From a virus (taxonomy: Duplodnaviria; Heunggongvirae; Uroviricota; Caudoviricetes): 7,676 bases of DNA. The notes below the pieces were generated by a model, which was not told the origin of the DNA, made no database searches, and saw nothing but the letters and a program-made list of their open reading frames with translations. A program made the position numbers and the translations under genes. Where the stretch lies: positions 1-7,676 of the IMG/VR virus record IMGVR_UViG_2623620491_000013, one strand, 5' to 3'. Numbering within the stretch: position 1 is the first letter of the stretch; the number at the start of each line of letters is the position of its first letter. Below are positions 1-7,676 of this stretch, piece by piece.

Positions 1-261
1 AAGCGTGCGTATTGCCTGAAAACACAACCCGCTACGGGGGAGACTTACCCGAAATCTGATTTATTCAACAAAGCCCGTCAGTGTGTGACCCCTGGCGATT
101 ATGTTCTTTATGAAGGTCGGACATATATCGCCTCGGCAAACAATATTAAAAAGAGAAAACTTTATATTCGTAGCCTGACTACAAAAACATGCATTTCTGA
201 CTGCATGATTAAAGTCTTCCTCGGTCGTGATGGTTTACCTGTAAAGGCGGAGTCATGGTAA
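1..261 (+). CDS. 3' end of an upstream prophage ORF, truncated by the window edge; product unknown
   Basis: Frame 1 is open from position 1 to TAA at 259-261 (86 sense codons, only in-frame ATG near the end), so an ATG-anchored ORF track misses it. Its stop overlaps the next start (TAATG). In the Rac gene order this slot is a kil-type gene, but I cannot confirm that from sequence. Confidence 0.4.
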
Positions 262-431
262 TGACTAAGAAAATAAAATGTGCTTATCACCTTTGCAATA
301 AAGAAATTGAAGAAAGCAAAATCATTACAAGACCACTTCATTTCATGCGTGGAGTTATACCAACGACGGAAATGAAAAAATATTGTAGTGAAATCTGTGC
401 CGAAAAAGACCAGATGGCACACGAACTTTAA
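261..431 (+). CDS. Small Cys4 zinc-ribbon protein, 56 aa (ydaE-like by position and length)
   Basis: ATG at 261 overlaps the upstream stop (TAATG); GGAG at 249-252 with 8-nt spacing; stop TAA at 429-431. Four Cys arranged C-x4-C ... C-x3-C (KCAYHLC ... YCSEIC). Not in the supplied ORF track (below size cut-off); the antisense 86-aa track ORF 162-422 is the less plausible reading. Confidence 0.55.
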   Translation: MTKKIKCAYHLCNKEIEESKIITRPLHFMRGVIPTTEMKKYCSEICAEKDQMAHEL

Positions 432-505
432 TTAACTGACTATCCGAAACTGAATTTATGCCAGCAATGGCAGGGATTCGCTCAACCTTAATTAAGGAGA
501 AAAAC

Positions 506-781
506 ATGATTACCAGTTATGAAGCCACTGTTGTTACTACTGATGACATTGTTCACGAAGTCAGCCTGGAAGGAAAGCGTATTGGCTACGTGATTAAAAC
601 AGAAAATAAAGAAGCCCCTTTCACTGTGGTTGATATCGACGGTCCATCAGGCAACGTTAAAACACTTAACGAAGGCGTCAAAAAAATGTGCCTAGTGCAT
701 ATCGGAAAGAATCTGCCCGCAGAAAAAAAAGCCGAATTTCTGGCAACTCTGATTGCAATGAAATTAAAAGGTGAAATCTGA
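506..781 (+). CDS. RacC-like small prophage protein, 91 aa
   Basis: ATG at 506 preceded by AAGGAG (494-499, 6-nt spacer); internal start of track ORF 458-781. Size and position immediately upstream of recE match racC of Rac-type prophages; assigned by synteny, not sequence recognition. Confidence 0.55.
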   Translation: MITSYEATVVTTDDIVHEVSLEGKRIGYVIKTENKEAPFTVVDIDGPSGNVKTLNEGVKKMCLVHIGKNLPAEKKAEFLATLIAMKLKGEI

Positions 782-787
782 AGAAAT

Positions 788-808
788 AGCCTGCGTATGA
801 CGCAGGCT
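788..808 (+). other. Perfect hairpin (9-bp stem AGCCTGCGT / ACGCAGGCT, 3-nt loop) in the racC-recE spacer, no U-tract
   Basis: Inverted repeat read directly from the sequence. Not followed by a T-run, so not a canonical intrinsic terminator; possibly an RNA processing/stability element or a protein-binding palindrome. Confidence 0.4.
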
Positions 809-880
809 ATGAACAGTGTGTATCCGGCAAGATTATTCACTGAACAAACGAATTTTAATCTGAGTTGAGGTTAAAAAACA

Positions 881-3800
881 ATGAGCACCGATAAACAAGT
901 TTACCCACTGTATTACGAAGCAAAAAATGACAAAGTAAGAAAACGTCTCGGTATTAAAGGCGGTTTTTACTGGGCTGAAGCGAAAAAATTATCCATTGCC
1001 ATCTCCCGTGGTGCTGTTGCGATTGACGATGCTGGCTACGATGAAGATGACTTCAAAAAACCTGTTCGCGTCAATTTGCCCGTTGTTGATGACCTCCCGC
1101 CAGAAGGCGTATTTGATACGGAATTCTGCAACCGTTACGAAAAAGGCGGGGAAGATGGCATCACAATGGTATTTATCGCGCCCTCACCCTCTGCGCAGGG
1201 CAAACCAGCCAGCACTGACAACACCAATGTTAATGGCGAAGACATGACGGAGATTGAGGAGAATATGCTACTCCCGATTTCTGGCCAGGAGCTGCCCATT
1301 CGCTGGCTTGCTCAACACGGCAGCGAAAAACCGGTAACGCACGTTTCACGCGACGAACTCCAGGCATTACACATTGCACGGGCTGAGGAACTACCAGCTG
1401 TTACTGCCCTGGCTGTTTCCCACAAAACCAGCCTGCTCGATCCGCTGGAAATTCGCGATCTCCACAAACTGGTGCGTGATACTGACAGAGTTTTCCCTAA
1501 TCCAGGCAATTCAAGCCTGGGGCTGATGACTGCTTTTTTCGAAGCATACATGGACGCAGACTACACCGATCGCGGTCTGCTGACAAAAGAGTGGATGAAA
1601 GGAAATCGTGTTTCACGCATCACGCGCACGGCTTCCGGCGCTAATGCTGGCGGCGGGAACCTCACCGATCGCGGCGAAGGTTTCGTTCACGATCTGACGT
1701 CACTGGCGCGCGACGTAGCCACTGGCGTACTGGCCCGTTCAATGGACGTGGACATTTATAACCTTCATCCGGCACACGCTAAACGTGTCGAGGAAATTAT
1801 CGCTGAAAATAAACCGCCCTTTTCTGTTTTCCGCGACAAATTCATCACCATGCCTGGCGGGCTGGATTATTCCCGTGCCATCGTGGTTGCGTCCGTAAAA
1901 GAAGCACCAATTGGGATCGAGGTTATCCCCGCACACGTCACTGAATATCTGAACAAAGTACTGACTGAAACTGATCATGCCAACCCTGATCCAGAAATCG
2001 TGGATATTGCCTGCGGTCGTTCCTCTGCCCCGATGCCGCAGCGTGTAACAGAAGAAGAAAAACAGGATGATGAAGAAAAACTGCAACCATCTTGCGCAAT
2101 GGCAGATGAACAGGCAACGGCTGAAACAGTGGAACCGGATGCAACTGAACATCATCAGGACACGCAGCCGCTGGATGCTCAGTCACAGGTAAATTCTGTT
2201 GATGCGAAATATCAGAAACTGCGGGCAGAACTCCATGAAGCCCGGAAAAACATTCCGCCCAAAAATCCTGTCGATGCAGACAAATTACTGGCTGCCTCTC
2301 GCGGAGAATTTGTTGAAGGGATTAGCGACCCGAATGATCCGAAATGGGTTAAGGGGATCCAGACCCGCGACTCTGTGTATCAGAATCAGCCAGAAACGGA
2401 ACAGAACGACCCAAATACGCAACAAAACGAGCCAGAAACGAAACAGCCTGAGCCAGTAGTGCAACAACAGGAAACGGAGAAAGTTTGCACCGCCTGCGGT
2501 AAGGCTGGCGGCGGCAACTGTCCTGACTGTGGCGCGGTGATGGGCGACGCAACGTATCAGAAAACCTTTAATGAAGAAAATCAGAATGAATATCAGGAAA
2601 AAGGTCTGGAGGAAATGGAAGGTGCTGAACATCCGCACAAGGAGAACGCTGGCAGCAATCCGCATTGCGATTGCAGTGATGAAGCTGGTGAAGCGACAGC
2701 ACCTGTAGTAACTGAAATCATGTGGCCGTCATATTTCGAGCCTGGCCGCTATGAAAACCTCCCGAACGAGGTTTATCACTCCGCCAACGGAATAAGCAGC
2801 ACAATGCTGAAGGATGCCCGCATCAGCCTGATGTATTACCACGGACGGCACATTGCCGGAACTATTCTGGGCGAGGAAAGTGATGCATTGCTGCGTGGGC
2901 GGATTATTCACAGCTATGTTCTGGAAACGGATAAATTCGCTGATGAGTATGCCATTCCGGTACCGGTTCCTGAATATGTGGTTACTACTTCTAACGAACT
3001 GATCGCCATCATTAAAAAACACAATGCCAGTCTGCCAGCACTGATGACACCAGAGCAGATGAAAGAGTGGATCGAAAGCTACAACAGCACTCTTATACAG
3101 CCACTGTCGGTAAGTGCCGGGGCCGAAGAAACAGGCATCCTTTACGGTTCGCTTCCGGAGGAATTCCGGCGTATTCCTGAGGGGGAAAAACACACAGCAT
3201 CAGCAATGAAAGCCTGTATTAAAGAATACAACGCAAGCCTCCCTCCTCTGCTGAAAGCCAGTGGAACACGGGAGCAGCTCCTGGAGCAAATTGAAACTGT
3301 AGATCCAGAACTGGCAAAAAAAGAACGTGCTAAATCTTTGCCTTACAACATCAGTGGCACAAAAGAGCAATTAACCGAAATCGCCCGGAAAATTCGCCCG
3401 GAACTGGTGACACTGGAGGACTGGCAAAAACGCCAGCAAGAAGAAAACGCCGGGAAAATGTTTATCAGTCCGGATATGTATGAACAGGCAAAAAATATTC
3501 ACGCAGCACTGCAAAACAATACTGATGCAGCAAGGCTACTCAACCACCCGGATCGCAAATCTGAAATCAGCTATTTCGGGTTTGATGAAGAAACCGGGCT
3601 GGAAATCAGGGTCCGTCCTGATATCGAAATCCGGCTGCCATACGAAAGCATTTGCGCCGACGTGAAGTCAGTCAGCCTCGGTTATGTGCGACAGGAACGA
3701 CTGAAAGATCGCCTGCACCGTGAAATTATTGAGCGTGATTATCACCTCAGCGCAGCAATGTATTGCGATGTGGCAAACCTGGACAAATTTTTCTGGATCT

Positions 3801-4009
3801 TCGTCAACAAAGATGCTGGCTATCACTGGGTGGCCGTCGTGGAAGCCTCGCAGGAACTCCTGGAACTTGGTCGACAGGAATATCGCCGGACGCTACGACA
3901 GATAAACGAAGCTCTGGAGACAAACAACTGGCCAGCACCGATTACCGAAAGTTATACCGACGAATTAAACGACTTTGATCTTCGTCGTTTTGAAGCACTG
4001 AGCATCTGA
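881..4009 (+). CDS. recE: Exodeoxyribonuclease VIII (RecE), 1042 aa, with C-terminal PD-(D/E)xK nuclease domain
   Basis: ATG at 881 with GAGG at 867-870. Protein contains segments I recognise as RecE-like ([43 protein letters not shown]...). C-terminal nuclease motif P913-D914 ... D927-V-K929 ([19 protein letters not shown]). Followed by a coupled annealing-protein gene and ralR, the Rac recET-lar arrangement. Confidence 0.82.
2486..2533 (+). other. Cys4 zinc-ribbon/knuckle motif inside RecE (C536-x2-C539-x7-C547-x2-C550)
   Basis: [16 protein letters not shown] read from the recE translation; sits just downstream of a Q/E/P/T-rich low-complexity linker. Confidence 0.5.
3005..3410 (+). repeat. 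Three imperfect tandem coding repeats (about 35-40 aa each) within the RecE C-terminal region
   Basis: Protein copies [23 protein letters not shown] / [27 protein letters not shown] / [21 protein letters not shown]. Nucleotide copies attaaaaaacacaatgccagtctgccagcactg (about 3011) and attaaagaatacaacgcaagcctccctcctctg (about 3218). Confidence 0.55.
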
Positions 4010-4020
4010 GGAAGGACACA

Positions 4021-5073
4021 ATGAACGAATTAACTCAACAAGAAAATATTAACTCTAATGTTGCGGTTTTCAGCCCTCAGTCCCTGGCTGCAATTCAGAC
4101 ATTTTCCCAGGTAATGGCTTCCGGCATGGCTACTGTACCGGAACACCTCCGGGGAAATCCATCAGACTGCATGGCCATCACCATGCAGGCGATGCAGTGG
4201 CAAATGAACCCTTACGCAGTAGCTCAGAAAACTTTCGTTGTGAATGGTGTGCTCGGATATGAAGCGCAACTGGTTAATGCCGTAATCAGTACTCGTGGGC
4301 CGCTAACCGGGCGTATTGAATATGACTGGTTCGGGCCGTGGGAAAAAATTATCGGGAAATTTGAAATTAGGAAGAACGACAAGGGGAAAGAATATCGTGT
4401 ACCTGGCTGGAAGCTGGCCGATGAAAACGGGATCGGAGTTCGCGTCCAGGCAACACTACGCGGAGAGAGCAAGCCACGCGTACTGGAGTTACTTCTGGCG
4501 CAGGCCAGAACACGTAACTCAACGTTATGGGCCGATGATCCTCGCCAGCAGCTTGCCTATCTGGCACTGAAACGCTGGGCGCGCCTTTATTGCCCTGAAG
4601 TGATTCTTGGAGTGTACACCCGGGACGAACTGGACGAACCACAGGAAAAAATCATTAATCCGGTTCAGGAACATAAAAATACATCCGCCTGCCGTGCGGA
4701 ACGTGAAACAACAATTATTGAGCAGGATGCCGGGGAAAACTGGATCAGTGCTTTCCGTGAACGTATTGAGCAGGCACAAAGCACCGGAGAAACAACATCA
4801 CTTCGCCAGGAAGTGGAAGATCATAAAAATACACTTGGCGCTCTCTACACAGAACTTAAAGGAAAAGTGGTTCAGCGTCATCACCGTCTCAATGCTATTG
4901 CCCGTATTGAGACGATGATAAATGACCTGCCTTCATCAGGTGATCCAGAAGCAGAACAAAAATTTATTGCTCTGGAAAATACGCTGAATGCTGCACGACC
5001 ACATCTGGGAGAATTATATGAGGCGTATAAAACGACACTGACAGATATGAAACCAGAATATATCGGCTCCTGA
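4021..5073 (+). CDS. RecT/Red-beta-family single-strand annealing protein, 350 aa, with a long C-terminal helical extension
   Basis: ATG at 4021; RBS GAGGAAGG (4008-4015) overlaps the recE stop (TGA 4007-4009), indicating translational coupling. N-terminal half has a Bet/RecT-like pattern (GNPSDCMAI...QWQMNPYAVAQK...GVLGYEAQ; LWADDPRQQLAYLALKRWARLY). I did not recognise the canonical K-12 RecT sequence, so the family assignment is by motif and position. Confidence 0.7.
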   Translation: MNELTQQENINSNVAVFSPQSLAAIQTFSQVMASGMATVPEHLRGNPSDCMAITMQAMQWQMNPYAVAQKTFVVNGVLGYEAQLVNAVISTRGPLTGRIEYDWFGPWEKIIGKFEIRKNDKGKEYRVPGWKLADENGIGVRVQATLRGESKPRVLELLLAQARTRNSTLWADDPRQQLAYLALKRWARLYCPEVILGVYTRDELDEPQEKIINPVQEHKNTSACRAERETTIIEQDAGENWISAFRERIEQAQSTGETTSLRQEVEDHKNTLGALYTELKGKVVQRHHRLNAIARIETMINDLPSSGDPEAEQKFIALENTLNAARPHLGELYEAYKTTLTDMKPEYIGS

Positions 5074-5080
5074 TATTTAC

Positions 5081-5106
5081 TATGGCGGTGTAGCCTCACC
5101 GCCATA
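5081..5106 (+). other. Perfect 10-bp stem hairpin (TATGGCGGTG / CACCGCCATA, 6-nt loop) between the annealing-protein stop and ralR
   Basis: Read directly from the sequence. Followed after 8 nt by a T-rich stretch (ACAAAACTTTATTTTA), so a weak terminator or leader structure for ralR. Overlaps the direct-repeat copy at 5074-5090. Confidence 0.45.
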
Positions 5107-5136
5107 ACAAAACTTTATTTTATGAGAGAAAAGACA

Positions 5137-5331
5137 ATGCGGTATGAAAAAGTCAAACCATGTCCGTTTTGTGGTTGTCCATCAGTAACGGTGAAAGCCA
5201 TTTCAGGATATTACCGCGCAAAGTGTAACGGATGCGAATCCCGAACCGGCTATAGTGGAAGTGAAAAAGAAGCACTCGAAAGATGGAATAAACGAACTAC
5301 TGGAAATAATAATGGAGGTGTTCATGTATAA
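5137..5331 (+). CDS. ralR: RalR (Lar): restriction-alleviation protein, reported to be the DNase toxin of a type I toxin-antitoxin pair in Rac
   Basis: 64 aa from ATG 5137 (purine-rich RBS GAGAGAAAAG at 5124-5133). Sequence MRYEKVKPCPFCGCPSVTVKAISGYYRAKCNGCESRTGYSGSEKEALERWNKR is recognised as Lar/RalR, with a C-x2-C ... C-x2-C zinc ribbon. The track ORF 5122-5331 is a 5-codon upstream extension. Confidence 0.85.
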   Translation: MRYEKVKPCPFCGCPSVTVKAISGYYRAKCNGCESRTGYSGSEKEALERWNKRTTGNNNGGVHV

Positions 5332-5512
5332 AATTACTACCACTATTGAAAAGGAAGGTGGCACTCCTACTAACTGGACAAGATATTCAAAATCTAAATT
5401 AACGAAATCAGAATGCGAAAAAATGCTCTCAGGGAAAAAAGAAGCAGGCGTTTCCAGAGAGCAGAAAGTAAAGCTGATAAATTTTAATTGCGAGAAACTT
5501 CTGTCCTCGTGA
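5324..5512 (+). CDS. YdaC-like small protein, 62 aa, overlapping the ralR 3' end
   Basis: ATG at 5324 with GGAGG at 5314-5318 (5-nt spacer); out-of-frame 8-nt overlap with the ralR stop (ATGTATAA). The track ORF 5255-5512 gives a longer N-terminus that lies inside ralR. Assigned by position in the Rac-type order. Confidence 0.5.
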   Translation: MYKITTTIEKEGGTPTNWTRYSKSKLTKSECEKMLSGKKEAGVSREQKVKLINFNCEKLLSS

Positions 5513-5567
5513 GTTGCATTATATACAAATTAGAACTTCATAGCTGATTATTAAAAATCAACCACAT

Positions 5568-5596
5568 CCGCCAGTATTCTGTATATTTACTGGCGG
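5568..5596 (+). other. Hairpin (9-bp stem CCGCCAGTA / TACTGGCGG, 11-nt loop) in the ydaC-xis spacer
   Basis: Read directly from the sequence; carries the second copy of the direct repeat ATATTTACT..GGCGGT also found at 5074-5090. Confidence 0.45.
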
Positions 5597-5618
5597 TCAT
5601 ATCGTAAGAGGTATGGCA

Positions 5619-5900
5619 ATGAATCTTGTGACACTCAAAACGTGGGGAAAACTCAGATATCCGGATAACCCACCATCAATATCAACGCTGAGACGATGGG
5701 CAAGGAATGGAAACATTTATCCTGCACCTGAACTACACGGGAGGAGTTACAGGGTGGTTCCGGAGGCTTTCTATATCAACCCAAATAAGGTTGATACCGA
5801 TATAACACACCATCAGCCTAATGGGCGACAAGGGAGAGACAGTCCGTTACTGGAGAAGTTAAAACATGCAGCGGAAAAAATACGATCCCAATTTGCCTAA
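5619..5900 (+). CDS. xis: Excisionase (Xis-like DNA-binding protein)
   Basis: Preferred start ATG 5619 (AAGAGG at 5606-5611, 7-nt spacer); the track start 5613 sits too close to the RBS. Overlaps the int start by 35 nt, as in lambda xis-int. Basic N-terminus with TLRRWARNG resembles the lambda Xis RRW region. Confidence 0.7.
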   Translation: MNLVTLKTWGKLRYPDNPPSISTLRRWARNGNIYPAPELHGRSYRVVPEAFYINPNKVDTDITHHQPNGRQGRDSPLLEKLKHAAEKIRSQFA

Positions 5901-6942
5901 AAACTTAACATATCGAAGGAGGGACAAAGCATATTACTGGCGCAACCCTCTGACGAAAGAAGAATTTACACTAGGTAAAATTTCAAGAAGAGATGCAGTA
6001 GCGCAGGCAATTGAAGCAAATCATTATATATACAAAAACTACTCTCCTGCTGCCTTAATTGAAAAGCTTAAAGGGTTCGACTCATTTACTATGGCAGACT
6101 GGATTGAACGTTACAAAACGATTCTTATAAGGAGAAAAGTGTCCAGAAATACTTATAAAATTCGGGTAAATCAACTGGAGACAATAAAAGAAAAATTGGG
6201 AGAGATTTTACTGACAGAAATAACCACTCGCCATATTGCCGAGTTTCTTGATTTGTGGATTGAAGGAGGGAAAAACACAATGGCAGGATCAATGCGTTCT
6301 GTGTTGTCTGATATGTTTCGTGAGGCCATTGTTGAAGGACGTATATCTCAAAATCCAGTAACGCCAACAAGAGCACCGAAAATAGTAGTTACAAGAGAAC
6401 GACTGAAACTAAAGACATACAACTGCATCAGGGAGGCAGCAGATCAACTTCCGGCATGGTTCCCATTAGCTATGGATTTAGCCCTTGTAACAGGACAACG
6501 TCGCGAAGACATAACGAATATGCGGTTTAGTGATATTTATGATGATCGTCTCCACATCAGGCAAATTAAGACAGGAATGATGATTGCTATCCCCCTGTCA
6601 CTCAGCCTTCCTGTCGCTGGTCTACGGCTTGGTACAGTAGTTGAACAGTGCCGCCTGGTAAGCCGGGGAGATTATCTAATCAGTGCCGGGATTAGAAAAA
6701 ACAGCCCTGACGGCAGCATTCACCCGGATGGCCTGACAAAAAAATTTGTCGCAGCCAGAAAATTAACAGGTATCCAGTTCAGTGAAAACCCACCAACTTT
6801 TCACGAGATCAGAAGTCTGGCTGGACGATTGTACAAAGAAACATGTGGAGAAGAATTTGCTCAGCGTCTACTTGGCCACACATCGGAGAAGACAACAAAA
6901 ATGTACCTTGATGAGAGAGAAAAAACGTACTTACTGCTCTGA
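5866..6942 (+). CDS. int: Lambda-family tyrosine integrase with N-terminal arm-binding domain
   Basis: 358 aa, colinear with lambda Int. N-terminus [22 protein letters not shown] matches lambda NLYIRNNGYYCYRDPRTGKEF; catalytic-region motifs [35 protein letters not shown] and [13 protein letters not shown] include the catalytic Tyr. GGAG at 5852-5855. Confidence 0.93.
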
Positions 6943-7008
6943 TTTTAACGTAAATGGATTGTTAAATGTATTTTGGTTGTGATATAACCAAAAAAGACTG
7001 GAATACAG

Positions 7009-7039
7009 AAATTCGAGTAAATTTCGGGGAATTTCGGGG
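7009..7039 (+). repeat. Tandem direct repeats: exact 10-bp AATTTCGGGG twice (7020-7039) plus a degenerate adjacent copy (7009-7019); candidate arm-type Int binding sites
   Basis: Repeats read directly. Three tandem short direct repeats between the int stop and the putative core mirror the P'1-P'3 arrangement of lambda attP. Function is inferred. Confidence 0.45.
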
Positions 7040-7048
7040 AGACGTTTG

Positions 7049-7061
7049 CAACTGATTGATT
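7049..7061 (-). promoter_or_regulatory. IHF consensus site (AATCAATCAGTTG = WATCAANNNNTTR) on the - strand
   Basis: Exact match to the IHF consensus, lying between the tandem repeats and the sdsR terminator palindrome, analogous to the H' site of lambda attP. Confidence 0.4.
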
Positions 7062-7073
7062 TTAAATACAATT

Positions 7074-7176
7074 AAAAAAAGACCGAATACGATTCCTGTA
7101 TTCGGTCCAGGGAAATGGCTCTTGGGAGAGAGCCGTGCGCTAAAAGTTGGCATTAATGCAGGCTTAGTTGCCTTGC
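7074..7176 (-). ncRNA. sdsR: SdsR (RyeB) small RNA
   Basis: The - strand reads GCAAGGCAACTAAGCCTGCATTAATGCCAACTTTTAGCGCACGGCTCTCTCCCAAGAGCCATTTCCCTGGACCGAATACAGGAATCGTATTCGGTC followed by T7, which I recognise as SdsR with its intrinsic terminator. A sigma-S type -10 lies immediately upstream. Confidence 0.8.
7081..7107. other. Candidate att core: perfect inverted repeat GACCGAATAC / GTATTCGGTC around a 7-bp spacer (GATTCCT), coincident with the sdsR terminator stem-loop
   Basis: Two inverted 10-bp half-sites around a 7-bp spacer resemble a C-overlap-C' core. Distances to the IHF site (about 35 bp) and tandem repeats (about 55-75 bp) approximate the lambda P' arm geometry. Inference only; the junction could lie further left (6943-7045). 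Confidence 0.35.
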
Positions 7177-7215
7177 CCTTTAAGAATAGATGACGACGCC
7201 AGGTTTTCCAGTTTG
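7177..7215 (-). promoter_or_regulatory. sdsR promoter with sigma-S type extended -10 (TCTATTCTTAA)
   Basis: On the - strand TCTATTCTTAAAGG immediately precedes the SdsR 5' end (plus coordinates 7177-7190); this is a near match to the sigma-S -10 consensus TCTATACTTAA including the -13 C. SdsR is a known RpoS-dependent sRNA. Confidence 0.55.
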
Positions 7216-7263
7216 CGTGCAAAATGGTCAATAAAAAGCGTGGTGGTCATCAGCTGAAATGTT

Positions 7264-7305
7264 AAAAACCGCCCGTTCTGGTGAAAGAACTGAGGCGGTT
7301 TTTTT
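7264..7305. terminator. Bidirectional intrinsic terminator between ryeA (+) and yebY (-)
   Basis: A5 (7264-7268), imperfect stem CCGCC-C-GTTCT ... AGAAC-TGA-GGCGG (7269-7298), T7 (7299-7305). U-tract on both strands: 7 U for the + strand transcript, 5 U for the - strand. Confidence 0.7.
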
Positions 7306-7334
7306 ATTGGAAATCAAAAGGCTATTTTAGGTAA

Positions 7335-7676
7335 TTAACAGAGTTTTTCAGCTCGTTCTATAAACGGTGCCAGACTCATTTTTTCGCCGGGATTGTTAGG
7401 ATCATCAATCTGAATCACCGAAATGGGTTGGGCATTGGTCTTCCCACTGGCAACTTCCTTTTGTGCGATATCGTTTAAAGGATACTGCACGAGGGTACTC
7501 GGATTAATAACATACAAAGCATTACCCGGTCGGCAAGTCAGCATCACCTCTTCGCGATTAAACGCCCATTTGTCTTTACCCACTTCAAAACGACTGACGG
7601 TAATCACCTGCGGTGCAGCCAGCGCCGCTGCAGAACTGGTGAGTAACAGAAACGCCAGAATACTTTTTTTCATCAT
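7335..7676 (-). CDS. yebY: YebY (DUF2511-type secreted protein) with Sec signal peptide
   Basis: 113 aa ORF; N-terminus [23 protein letters not shown] is a typical signal peptide with an AxA cleavage site. Length and position next to sdsR match yebY of E. coli. The start codon is at the window edge, so start choice (7676 or 7673) and RBS cannot be checked. Confidence 0.7.

Follow-up and report, generated by a model that had tools for sequence, protein, structure and literature searches.

The attachment site of Salmonella phage PhiW104 consists of the last 23 bp of ryeB, an insertion hot spot (Balbontin et al. 2008, J Bacteriol 190:4075, as cited in PMC7380047, PMC3333887 and PMC3603311). Lysogeny at this site is described as lowering expression of ryeA and raising that of ryeB (summarized in PMC7380047 and PMC3333887). 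A Citrobacter freundii prophage named Cfr111.52.RyeB is catalogued (TIGER/Islander-type) in the supplement of PMC10111431. For the host RNAs themselves, SdsR 3' ends have been mapped at +100 to +102 in K-12, where transcription of ryeA impedes both that of sdsR and read-through from sdsR into pphA (PMC6610125).

The window analyzed here is the 7,676-nt stretch at positions 1 to 7,676 of IMG/VR virus record IMGVR_UViG_2623620491_000013. An earlier note on this DNA had placed a prophage-host junction at the sdsR terminator and had named the ryeA/ryeB locus as a Salmonella insertion hot spot, which is correct according to the citations of Balbontin et al. 2008 in PMC7380047 and PMC3333887. We conclude, with a probability of about 0.9, that 6943–7110 is the int-proximal junction (BOP' type, like lambda attL) of a lambdoid prophage in the 3' end of sdsR (ryeB). 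The relevant features, in window coordinates, are as follows.

5613–5900, plus strand: xis, excisionase (Pfam Exc PF07825, E 6.5e-14), overlapping the start of int and annotated as excisionase in CFS3292
5866–6942, plus strand: int, a lambda-type heterobivalent tyrosine integrase of 358 aa (Pfam, lambda Int alignment, PDB)
6995–7006, plus strand: core-like box AGACTGGAATAC, resembling the left core half-site GACCGAATAC
7009–7039, plus strand: three tandem arm-type repeats AAATTCGAGT, AATTTCGGGG and AATTTCGGGG, equivalents of P'3, P'2 and P'1 (TRF and pattern search)
7049–7061, minus strand: IHF consensus site, H' equivalent, exact WATCAANNNNTTR (AATCAATCAGTTG)
7070–7214, plus strand: body of ryeA (sraC), antisense to sdsR (Rfam RF00101, 179 bits)
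7073–7104: att common segment, with attP and attB equal at 29 of 32 bases (mismatches at 7079, 7088 and 7100)
7074–7173, minus strand: sdsR (ryeB) sRNA gene (full-length match to the Rfam RF00111 model SdsR_RyeB, 118 bits)
7081–7107: inverted repeat (10+7+10) forming the sdsR intrinsic terminator hairpin, its left arm phage-derived (C-type) and its right arm host (B')
7089–7099: exact identity block ACGATTCCTGT, 11 bp, holding the 7-nt sdsR terminator loop
7091–7097: proposed 7-bp overlap GATTCCT, the sdsR terminator loop, lying inside the 11-bp exchange window

The int-side boundary was mapped by alignment to K-12, CFS3292 and attP, which showed phage DNA up to 7088 and host DNA from 7100. 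Against K-12 (strain TG1) there was no relation left of 7073, and from 7089 on the window is the same as K-12. In the intervening 7073–7088 the window departs from the empty K-12 site at two bases, with A in place of G at 7079 and T in place of C at 7088; from 7073 it reads TAAAAAaAGACCGAAtACGATTCCTGTATTCGG... With the sdsR 3' end at 7074 and the exchange in 7089–7099, the junction falls inside the last ~23–28 bp of sdsR. Left of 7073, a few scattered bases match K-12, for example ACA at 7068–7070.

Megablast of 6943–7400 against 5426 complete E. coli genomes found the sequence from 7073 rightwards in every genome, while 6943–7072 was present in only 228 and absent from 5198. The pphA-yebY interval, in its K-12 version, was uninterrupted in 5191 of the 5426 and split in 235. 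The earlier note had left room for a junction further to the left, with 7010–7080, including the repeats and the IHF site, being host DNA. Identity with K-12 starts at 7073 and not left of about 7045, so 7009–7061 is phage DNA. Nothing beyond the scattered matching bases (ACA at 7068–7070) speaks for host origin, and against it stand the unrelated K-12 sequence at this position, the 5198 genomes that lack 6943–7072, the phage genome PP818812.1, where this stretch is flanked by phage DNA on both sides, and the movement of the stretch with the integrase across hosts. The K-12 alignment and the genome survey exclude that alternative, which we regard as vanishingly improbable, and place the junction within sdsR.

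The far prophage end was read in strain CFS3292, which carries the same prophage (~43.5 kb, with window positions 76–7676 aligning at 96–99% identity), and the far end of the window's own prophage was taken from there. The pphA-side junction in CFS3292 is ...GACCGAACACGATTCCTGT|TTTCGTCAAC, with host ...ATAAAAAGAGACCGAACACGATTCCTGT followed by phage TTTCGTCAACAAACG..., and the same junction was seen in 8 IMG/VR loci among the matches listed. A second copy of the entire 7081–7107 core had been anticipated at this boundary. The core is indeed repeated beside pphA in CFS3292, but the repeat comprises 7073–7099 plus a degenerate right arm and not the whole of 7081–7107. Accordingly, the full 27-mer was not found at the far prophage end in CFS3292 when up to 3 mismatches were allowed, because the copy there differs at 5 positions and has only the left arm and loop in common with it. 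The duplicated att segment is best read as 7073–7104, and the right hairpin arm, 7100–7107, is best read as host-only, a B' core-type site rather than part of the repeat.

The attP predicted by joining the phage sides of both junctions is found uninterrupted in phage genome PP818812.1, which encodes an Int 97.8% identical to that of the window. This attP reads ...ACAATTAAAAAAAGACCGAATACGATTCCTGTTTTCGTCAAC..., attB reads ...ACAGATAAAAAGAGACCGAACACGATTCCTGTATTCGGTCCAG..., and the two prophage junctions are reciprocal recombinants of them. When attP (pPE4), attB (K-12) and the junctions on the int side (window) and the pphA side (CFS3292) were aligned together, the int-side junction proved to have the phage allele at 7088 and the host allele at 7100, and the pphA-side junction the other way round. 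These opposite alleles confine strand exchange to ACGATTCCTGT (7089–7099). Both limits recur among the IMG/VR matches listed: base 7088 is T at every int-side junction of this phage and C at every E. coli pphA-side junction, and 42 of 45 distinct non-host right flanks (P arms) leave host sequence exactly at 7100.

The 7089–7099 crossover segment contains the sdsR terminator loop, which bears out the suggestion that the phage target is an sRNA terminator. The inverted repeat around it is perfect, as the earlier note had described: its arms, GACCGAATAC (7081–7090) and GTATTCGGTC (7098–7107), are 100% complementary around the 7-nt GATTCCT. That this hairpin is the sdsR intrinsic terminator was confirmed by the Rfam SdsR_RyeB match, by a terminator scan (an 11-pair stem and 7-nt loop, then TTTTTTT) and by folding (−15.8 kcal/mol, z-score −3.4). 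Without the phage-derived base at 7088 the stem would be imperfect, since C at this position in the empty K-12 site makes a G-U pair.

Inverted core sites with a 7-bp spacer are the canonical core layout of the lambda family. The half-sites beside the loop are CGAATAC (C), CGAAAAC (C', other strand), CGAACAC (B) and CGAATAC (B'), that is, four inverted CGAAnAC sites around the 7-bp spacer GATTCCT. The overlap is most likely this terminator loop, judging by the half-sites, within the 11 bp to which sequence alone confines it. The right half-site of attP, GTTTTCG, mirrors the left one imperfectly (6/7), so use of the hairpin symmetry by the integrase is something we infer.

The lambda-type int had been noted as ending at 6942, and the open reading frame at 5866–6942 has the arm-binding domain and the full set of six catalytic residues expected of such an enzyme. 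Int matches Pfam profiles Arm-DNA-bind_1, Phage_int_M and Phage_integrase (PF00589, E 1e-16). Its arm-binding domain was recognized at residues 3–61 (PF09003 Arm-DNA-bind_1, 28.1 bits with a cutoff of 22), and the N-terminal domain gave a weak match to PDB 1kjk (E 4e-4). Along its full length, Int has 39% identity to lambda Int, with R212, K235, H313, R316, H338 and Y347 aligned to lambda R212, K235, H308, R311, H333 and Y342. The best solved relatives are the lambda Int structures 1z1b and 1z1g (E 2e-72), and identity to HK022 Int is 41.5%. A search of genome contigs with Int returned only two close relatives, from E. coli and Shigella; the wider clade was drawn from IMG/VR. In CFS3292 the early region of the prophage is rac-like (kil, recE, recT, ralR, xis, int), and there is a myovirus-type tail module, with pinE at the far end.

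Between int and the core, AATTTCGGGG occurs twice in exact tandem, at 7020–7029 and 7030–7039 (TRF period 10, 2.1 copies, 100% match). Three tandem repeats had been claimed for 7009–7039. Two of them are exact; the third, AAATTCGAGT (7009–7018), matches at only 7/10 positions and would not stand alone, but is backed by relatives with three clean copies at its position, for example AAATTCGAGG AAATTTCGAGG AATTTCGAGG. The exact IHF consensus reported at 7049–7061 was found again, on the minus strand, and this WATCAANNNNTTR is the sole exact match in the window. Such a match is not unusual by chance, with 0.41 expected in the window and one or more in 64 of 200 shuffles, and the predicted IHF site draws its weight from position and conservation, not from the consensus match alone. 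In relatives with 74–75% Int identity, the consensus positions of the site are kept while its N positions vary.

We compared the arrangement with that of lambda. Lambda coordinates came from a scan of NC_001416 in the int-to-core orientation and were counted from the center of TTTATAC; those of the window were counted from 7094.

H' (IHF): lambda −44 to −32; this phage −45 to −33
P'1: lambda −62 to −53; this phage −64 to −55
P'2: lambda −72 to −63; this phage −74 to −65
P'3: lambda −83 to −74; this phage −85 to −76
P'1–P'3 span: lambda −83 to −53; this phage −85 to −55
H2 (IHF): lambda +36 to +48; this phage +35 to +47, with 1 mismatch to consensus
H1 (IHF): lambda +114 to +126; this phage +102 to +114, with 1 mismatch
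P-arm arm sites: lambda P2 +103 to +112 and P1 +134 to +143; this phage four TTTCRRG units, +122 to +160

The P' arm sites lie on the same strand as in lambda, and the IHF site and repeats lie within 1–2 bp of lambda H' and P'1–P'3. The parallel with the lambda P' arm, drawn earlier from order and spacing, has thus been measured, and the int-side arm is almost superimposable on its lambda counterpart. The fit holds with the center set anywhere in 7092–7094, and exact spacing needs 7092–7093. This last detail bears on the overlap, which could instead be shifted 1–2 bp to the left (e.g., 7089–7095 or 7090–7096), in which case the symmetry of the terminator would be incidental and the target simply a conserved sequence. 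The lambda H' and P' distances fit exactly only with that center and not with 7094, and the 6/7 mirror of the attP right half-site is weaker still in other clade members (GTTTACG, GTTTATG, GTTCTCG). On the other side, all four half-sites beside GATTCCT fit CGAAnAC in inverted orientation, the 7-bp spacer is canonical for the lambda family, and 1–2 bp is normal variation in arm spacing. A shifted overlap is possible but rather doubtful, and we keep the loop GATTCCT as the preferred placement.

An IMG/VR scan with GACCGAAYACGATTCCTGT gave at least 119 loci. Among the matches listed, 69 occurrences have the host sdsR body at right, with 60 distinct left flanks. In these int-side flanks an Int homolog of 49–100% identity lies directly upstream in all save truncated ones, and at least three tandem units are found at −92 to −52 in 58 of the 60 distinct arms; the exact IHF consensus stands at −45/−44 in only 16 of the 60. 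The repeat unit differs by branch, as TTCGGGG, TTCGAGG, TTCGGAA, TTCGGAC, TTCGTG or TTGGTGG, and changes together within an element. Branch-specific units also recur in P arms: there are TTCGGAC-type P arms, and units are shared by the paired ends L140/L149 and by L093. Sites recognized by a protein domain that evolves along with them should co-vary in this way, and the pattern across the clade also validates the window's degenerate third copy. The variety of the P arms (45 distinct, 42 diverging at 7100) points to one integrase clade carried by many phages and using the same crossover segment, a clade dedicated to the sdsR target.

The element in the source genome could be a fixed remnant that is no longer excisable, its att features being fossils. 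Decayed versions do exist: an 85-bp deletion has removed the arm repeats and IHF site from contig L137, one Shigella flexneri copy has a mutated core, and some replication-region genes in CFS3292 are pseudogenes. In the window, by contrast, int, xis, the three repeats, the IHF site and the core are all intact. A deposited phage genome has the 97.8%-identical Int together with an intact attP, and 96% of E. coli genomes have an empty site, a sign that gain has been recent and repeated. We consider a fossil quite improbable.

A mechanism can be proposed along lambda lines. The Int N-domain would bind the three tandem repeats at 7009–7039, IHF would bend the P' arm at 7049–7061, and the two arms of the sdsR hairpin would serve the Int catalytic domains as inverted core-type binding sites (CGAAnAC). 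Strand exchange would then take place within ACGATTCCTGT (7089–7099), most likely across the 7-bp loop GATTCCT. Integration would rebuild a functional sdsR terminator, as tRNA-targeting phages do for their target genes; attP has its own copy of the sdsR 3' end, by which a functional terminator is restored.

In the lysogen the last 15 nt of sdsR (7074–7088) are supplied by the phage, with the two substitutions relative to K-12. In the rebuilt terminator the G-U pair of the native stem is replaced by A-U, and a U-tract UCUUUUUUU stands in place of UCUCUUUUU. We rejected the idea that the perfect stem made by the phage is a stronger terminator, since both versions fold at −15.8 kcal/mol and only the U-tract differs. 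In the MG1655 annotation sdsR occupies 1923104–1923207 and ryeA starts at 1923066, 38 nt past the sdsR 3' end; this start maps to window position 7036, which is phage DNA here. The native promoter of ryeA and its first ~38 nt (~55–60 nt up to the crossover) are displaced to the pphA-side end, and the ~43.5-kb prophage separates pphA from sdsR. A sigma-70-like promoter, TTTGCA-16-TACAAT (7045–7072, plus strand), was considered for a 5'-truncated RyeA and rejected; it matches at 9/12 positions, 1.1 such matches are expected in the region, and its sequence is not kept in the 75% relatives. A scan for a plus-strand terminator between int and the co-oriented ryeA found none, so int read-through transcripts would be antisense to SdsR.

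SdsR is reported to be a toxin-like sRNA that RyeA counters as an antisense antidote, and pphA is fed by read-through from sdsR. By analogy with Salmonella, lower ryeA and higher sdsR (ryeB) expression would be expected in the E. coli lysogen. Lysogeny could go further and rewire the SdsR/RyeA/pphA circuit, through removal of the ryeA promoter, int read-through antisense to SdsR and a U-tail of 7 instead of 5 U. Roughly 4% of the E. coli sequenced so far harbor the prophage and so probably regulate their SdsR, RyeA and pphA RNAs differently; a prophage at sdsR is worth knowing of when E. coli strains are compared.

The core-like box outside the arm repeats, AGACTGGAATAC, is conserved within 2 substitutions in 54 of the 60 distinct int-side arms among the IMG/VR matches listed, over an Int identity range of 49–100%. 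It was also tried as a fourth arm repeat and rejected, there being no convincing similarity to AATTTCGGGG in either orientation. The 85-bp deletion in contig L137 spans exactly from the core-like box to the core. The box (GACnGrATAy, 6995–7006) may be an attP element of the sdsR-targeting integrases that is absent from lambda. It could serve as an extra core-type Int site, for instance in excision control or in Int-mediated locking deletions such as that of L137. A role for the box, or the rewiring of the circuit of SdsR toxin, RyeA antitoxin and pphA, is speculative and in our estimate unlikely.

Besides 39% identity, Int shares the catalytic residues and arm-binding domain of lambda Int, and Xis belongs to the same Pfam family. 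H' and three tandem P' arm sites stand at near-equal distances, and the P arm has an IHF-like site at the H2 position and distal arm-type repeats. The two differ in the core (CGAAnAC and GATTCCT here, CAACTTnnT and TTTATAC in lambda), in the arm sites (AATTTCGGGG here, C/AAGTCACTAT in lambda), in the distance from the int stop to the center (152 bp against 80 bp) and in the number of P-arm repeats (four against two). This phage has in addition the conserved core-like box at −99 to −88, and its target is an sRNA terminator, whereas lambda uses the gal-bio intergenic attB.

The order of the early region, kil, recE, recT, ralR/RalA, xis, int, is that of Rac in E. coli K-12. Rac is integrated in ttcA (ydaO) and has a different integrase. 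The element here uses sdsR and, in a further difference from Rac, has a myovirus-type baseplate and tail module with the pinE invertase.

The Citrobacter prophage Cfr111.52.RyeB, as represented in the supplement of PMC10111431, has an identity block, ACAGGAATCGTATTCGGTCTCTTTTTAT, equal to the reverse complement of the equivalent of window 7072–7099, and it shares the right boundary of the exchange block seen here. Its flank, as given in that supplement, has GTCCGAA repeats and a core-like box, placing it in the TTCGGAC branch of the same attP architecture. It differs in host genus and in integrase branch, with ~59–65% Int identity in comparable IMG/VR loci.

Phages that target the 3' ends of tRNA and tmRNA genes, such as P4, P22 and HP1 (Williams 2002, as cited in PMC3603311), offer the broader precedent. 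They likewise target a conserved RNA gene that has a symmetric stem-loop, cross over in or beside the loop, and bring a replacement 3' end that keeps the gene intact. At sdsR, however, the stem-loop is the Rho-independent terminator of a regulatory sRNA and not an anticodon or T-loop, and the opposite strand encodes RyeA, which the insertion cuts short. The locus is in this sense a textbook case of a regulatory-sRNA terminator hairpin being treated like a tRNA stem-loop, with a spare 3' end that saves the gene.

A close known case is PhiW104, with the ryeA/ryeB (sraC/sdsR) hot spot of Salmonella enterica. The sdsR/ryeB attachment site has been known from Salmonella since 2008, according to the papers that cite that work, and its finding here is a correct rediscovery in E. 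coli. With both the site and the effect on ryeA/ryeB expression published for Salmonella in that year, as those papers relate, no new question is opened. The small additions are the base-level limits of the exchange in E. coli, the near-lambda arm geometry, the clade-wide co-variation of the repeats and the conserved box at 6995–7006. As PhiW104 is described in those papers, both phages use the same target, the final ~23 bp of ryeB/sdsR, which lie within ryeA, and in both ryeB is regenerated while the 5' part of ryeA is replaced; the shared segment in the window, 7074–7099, includes those 23 bp (7074–7096). Set beside that description, the host here is E. coli, whose attB has two bases unlike the phage copy (7079 and 7088), and the prophage has a rac-like recET-ralR early region.

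Immediately beyond the three arm repeats of the int-side arm lies a short box that resembles the left core half-site, GACCGAATAC:

6995-7006: core-like box AGACTGGAATAC

We know of no lambda equivalent of this box, which is present in 54 of 60 related int-side arms compared among loci L081-L199 of the IMG/VR scan. In one contig of the scan, L137, there is an 85-bp deletion whose endpoints are exactly the box and the core; the IHF site has been lost with it, as have the arm repeats.

Lysogeny alters the 3' end of SdsR. Relative to the K-12 empty site (window positions 7079/7088 vs 810/819 of L005), the terminal U-tract goes from 5 to 7 U and one stem pair changes from G-U to A-U. Predicted stability of the hairpin is the same before and after lysogeny; the altered 3' end could influence how SdsR binds Hfq or how efficiently its transcription terminates. 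For the antisense RNA, the 5' end of the Rfam SraC_RyeA consensus, AauUAAAAAaAG, is closer to the phage-derived AATTAAAAAAAG than to the K-12 CAGATAAAAAGAG (window 7070-7081), and the att boundary is also the start of the Rfam model. Judging from this phage-like 5' end and starting point, the SraC seed may have lysogen-type or non-E. coli sequences among its members.

The Int of L004, a genome deposited as 'Actinobacillus phage vB_Apl-pPE4' (GenBank PP818812.1) with Actinobacillus pleuropneumoniae as host, is 97.8% identical to that of the window, and the core of this phage's attP is the 3' end of enterobacterial sdsR. The Actinobacillus assignment looks doubtful; this phage may be derived from an E. 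coli-like lysogen. The same integrase, at 95% identity, occurs in Shigella flexneri SFBU1023 (L006, CP182556.1), where several substitutions and single-base deletions fall in the att core and sdsR body (GACC-AACATGATTCC...GGGTCCA-GGAAATGG, at about 4215-4260 of L006). These changes suggest that both the att site and the sRNA gene are decaying in Shigella. Separately, the contig L093 (IMGVR_UViG_2667528172_000001) contains two core copies 8.3 kb apart; right of one of them, a (GTTTCC)n microsatellite of ~7 units directly adjoins ...CCTGT.

Further from the att site, the window carries a recombination module and a toxin-antitoxin pair:

881-5073: rac-like recombination module (RecE, RecT)
5122-5331 (+) and 5508..5330 (-): RalR/RalA type I toxin-antitoxin pair
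5255-5512: DUF1187 ORF, antisense to and overlapping RalA

The ralR ORF matches the Pfam profile Lar_restr_allev. RalA, the antitoxin sRNA of the pair, has an Rfam match of 219.7 bits. RecE, with Exonuc_VIII and PDDEXK-like DUF3799 domains, is 1042 aa long and RecT 350 aa; the versions in K-12 Rac are shorter, at ~866 aa and ~269 aa, respectively.
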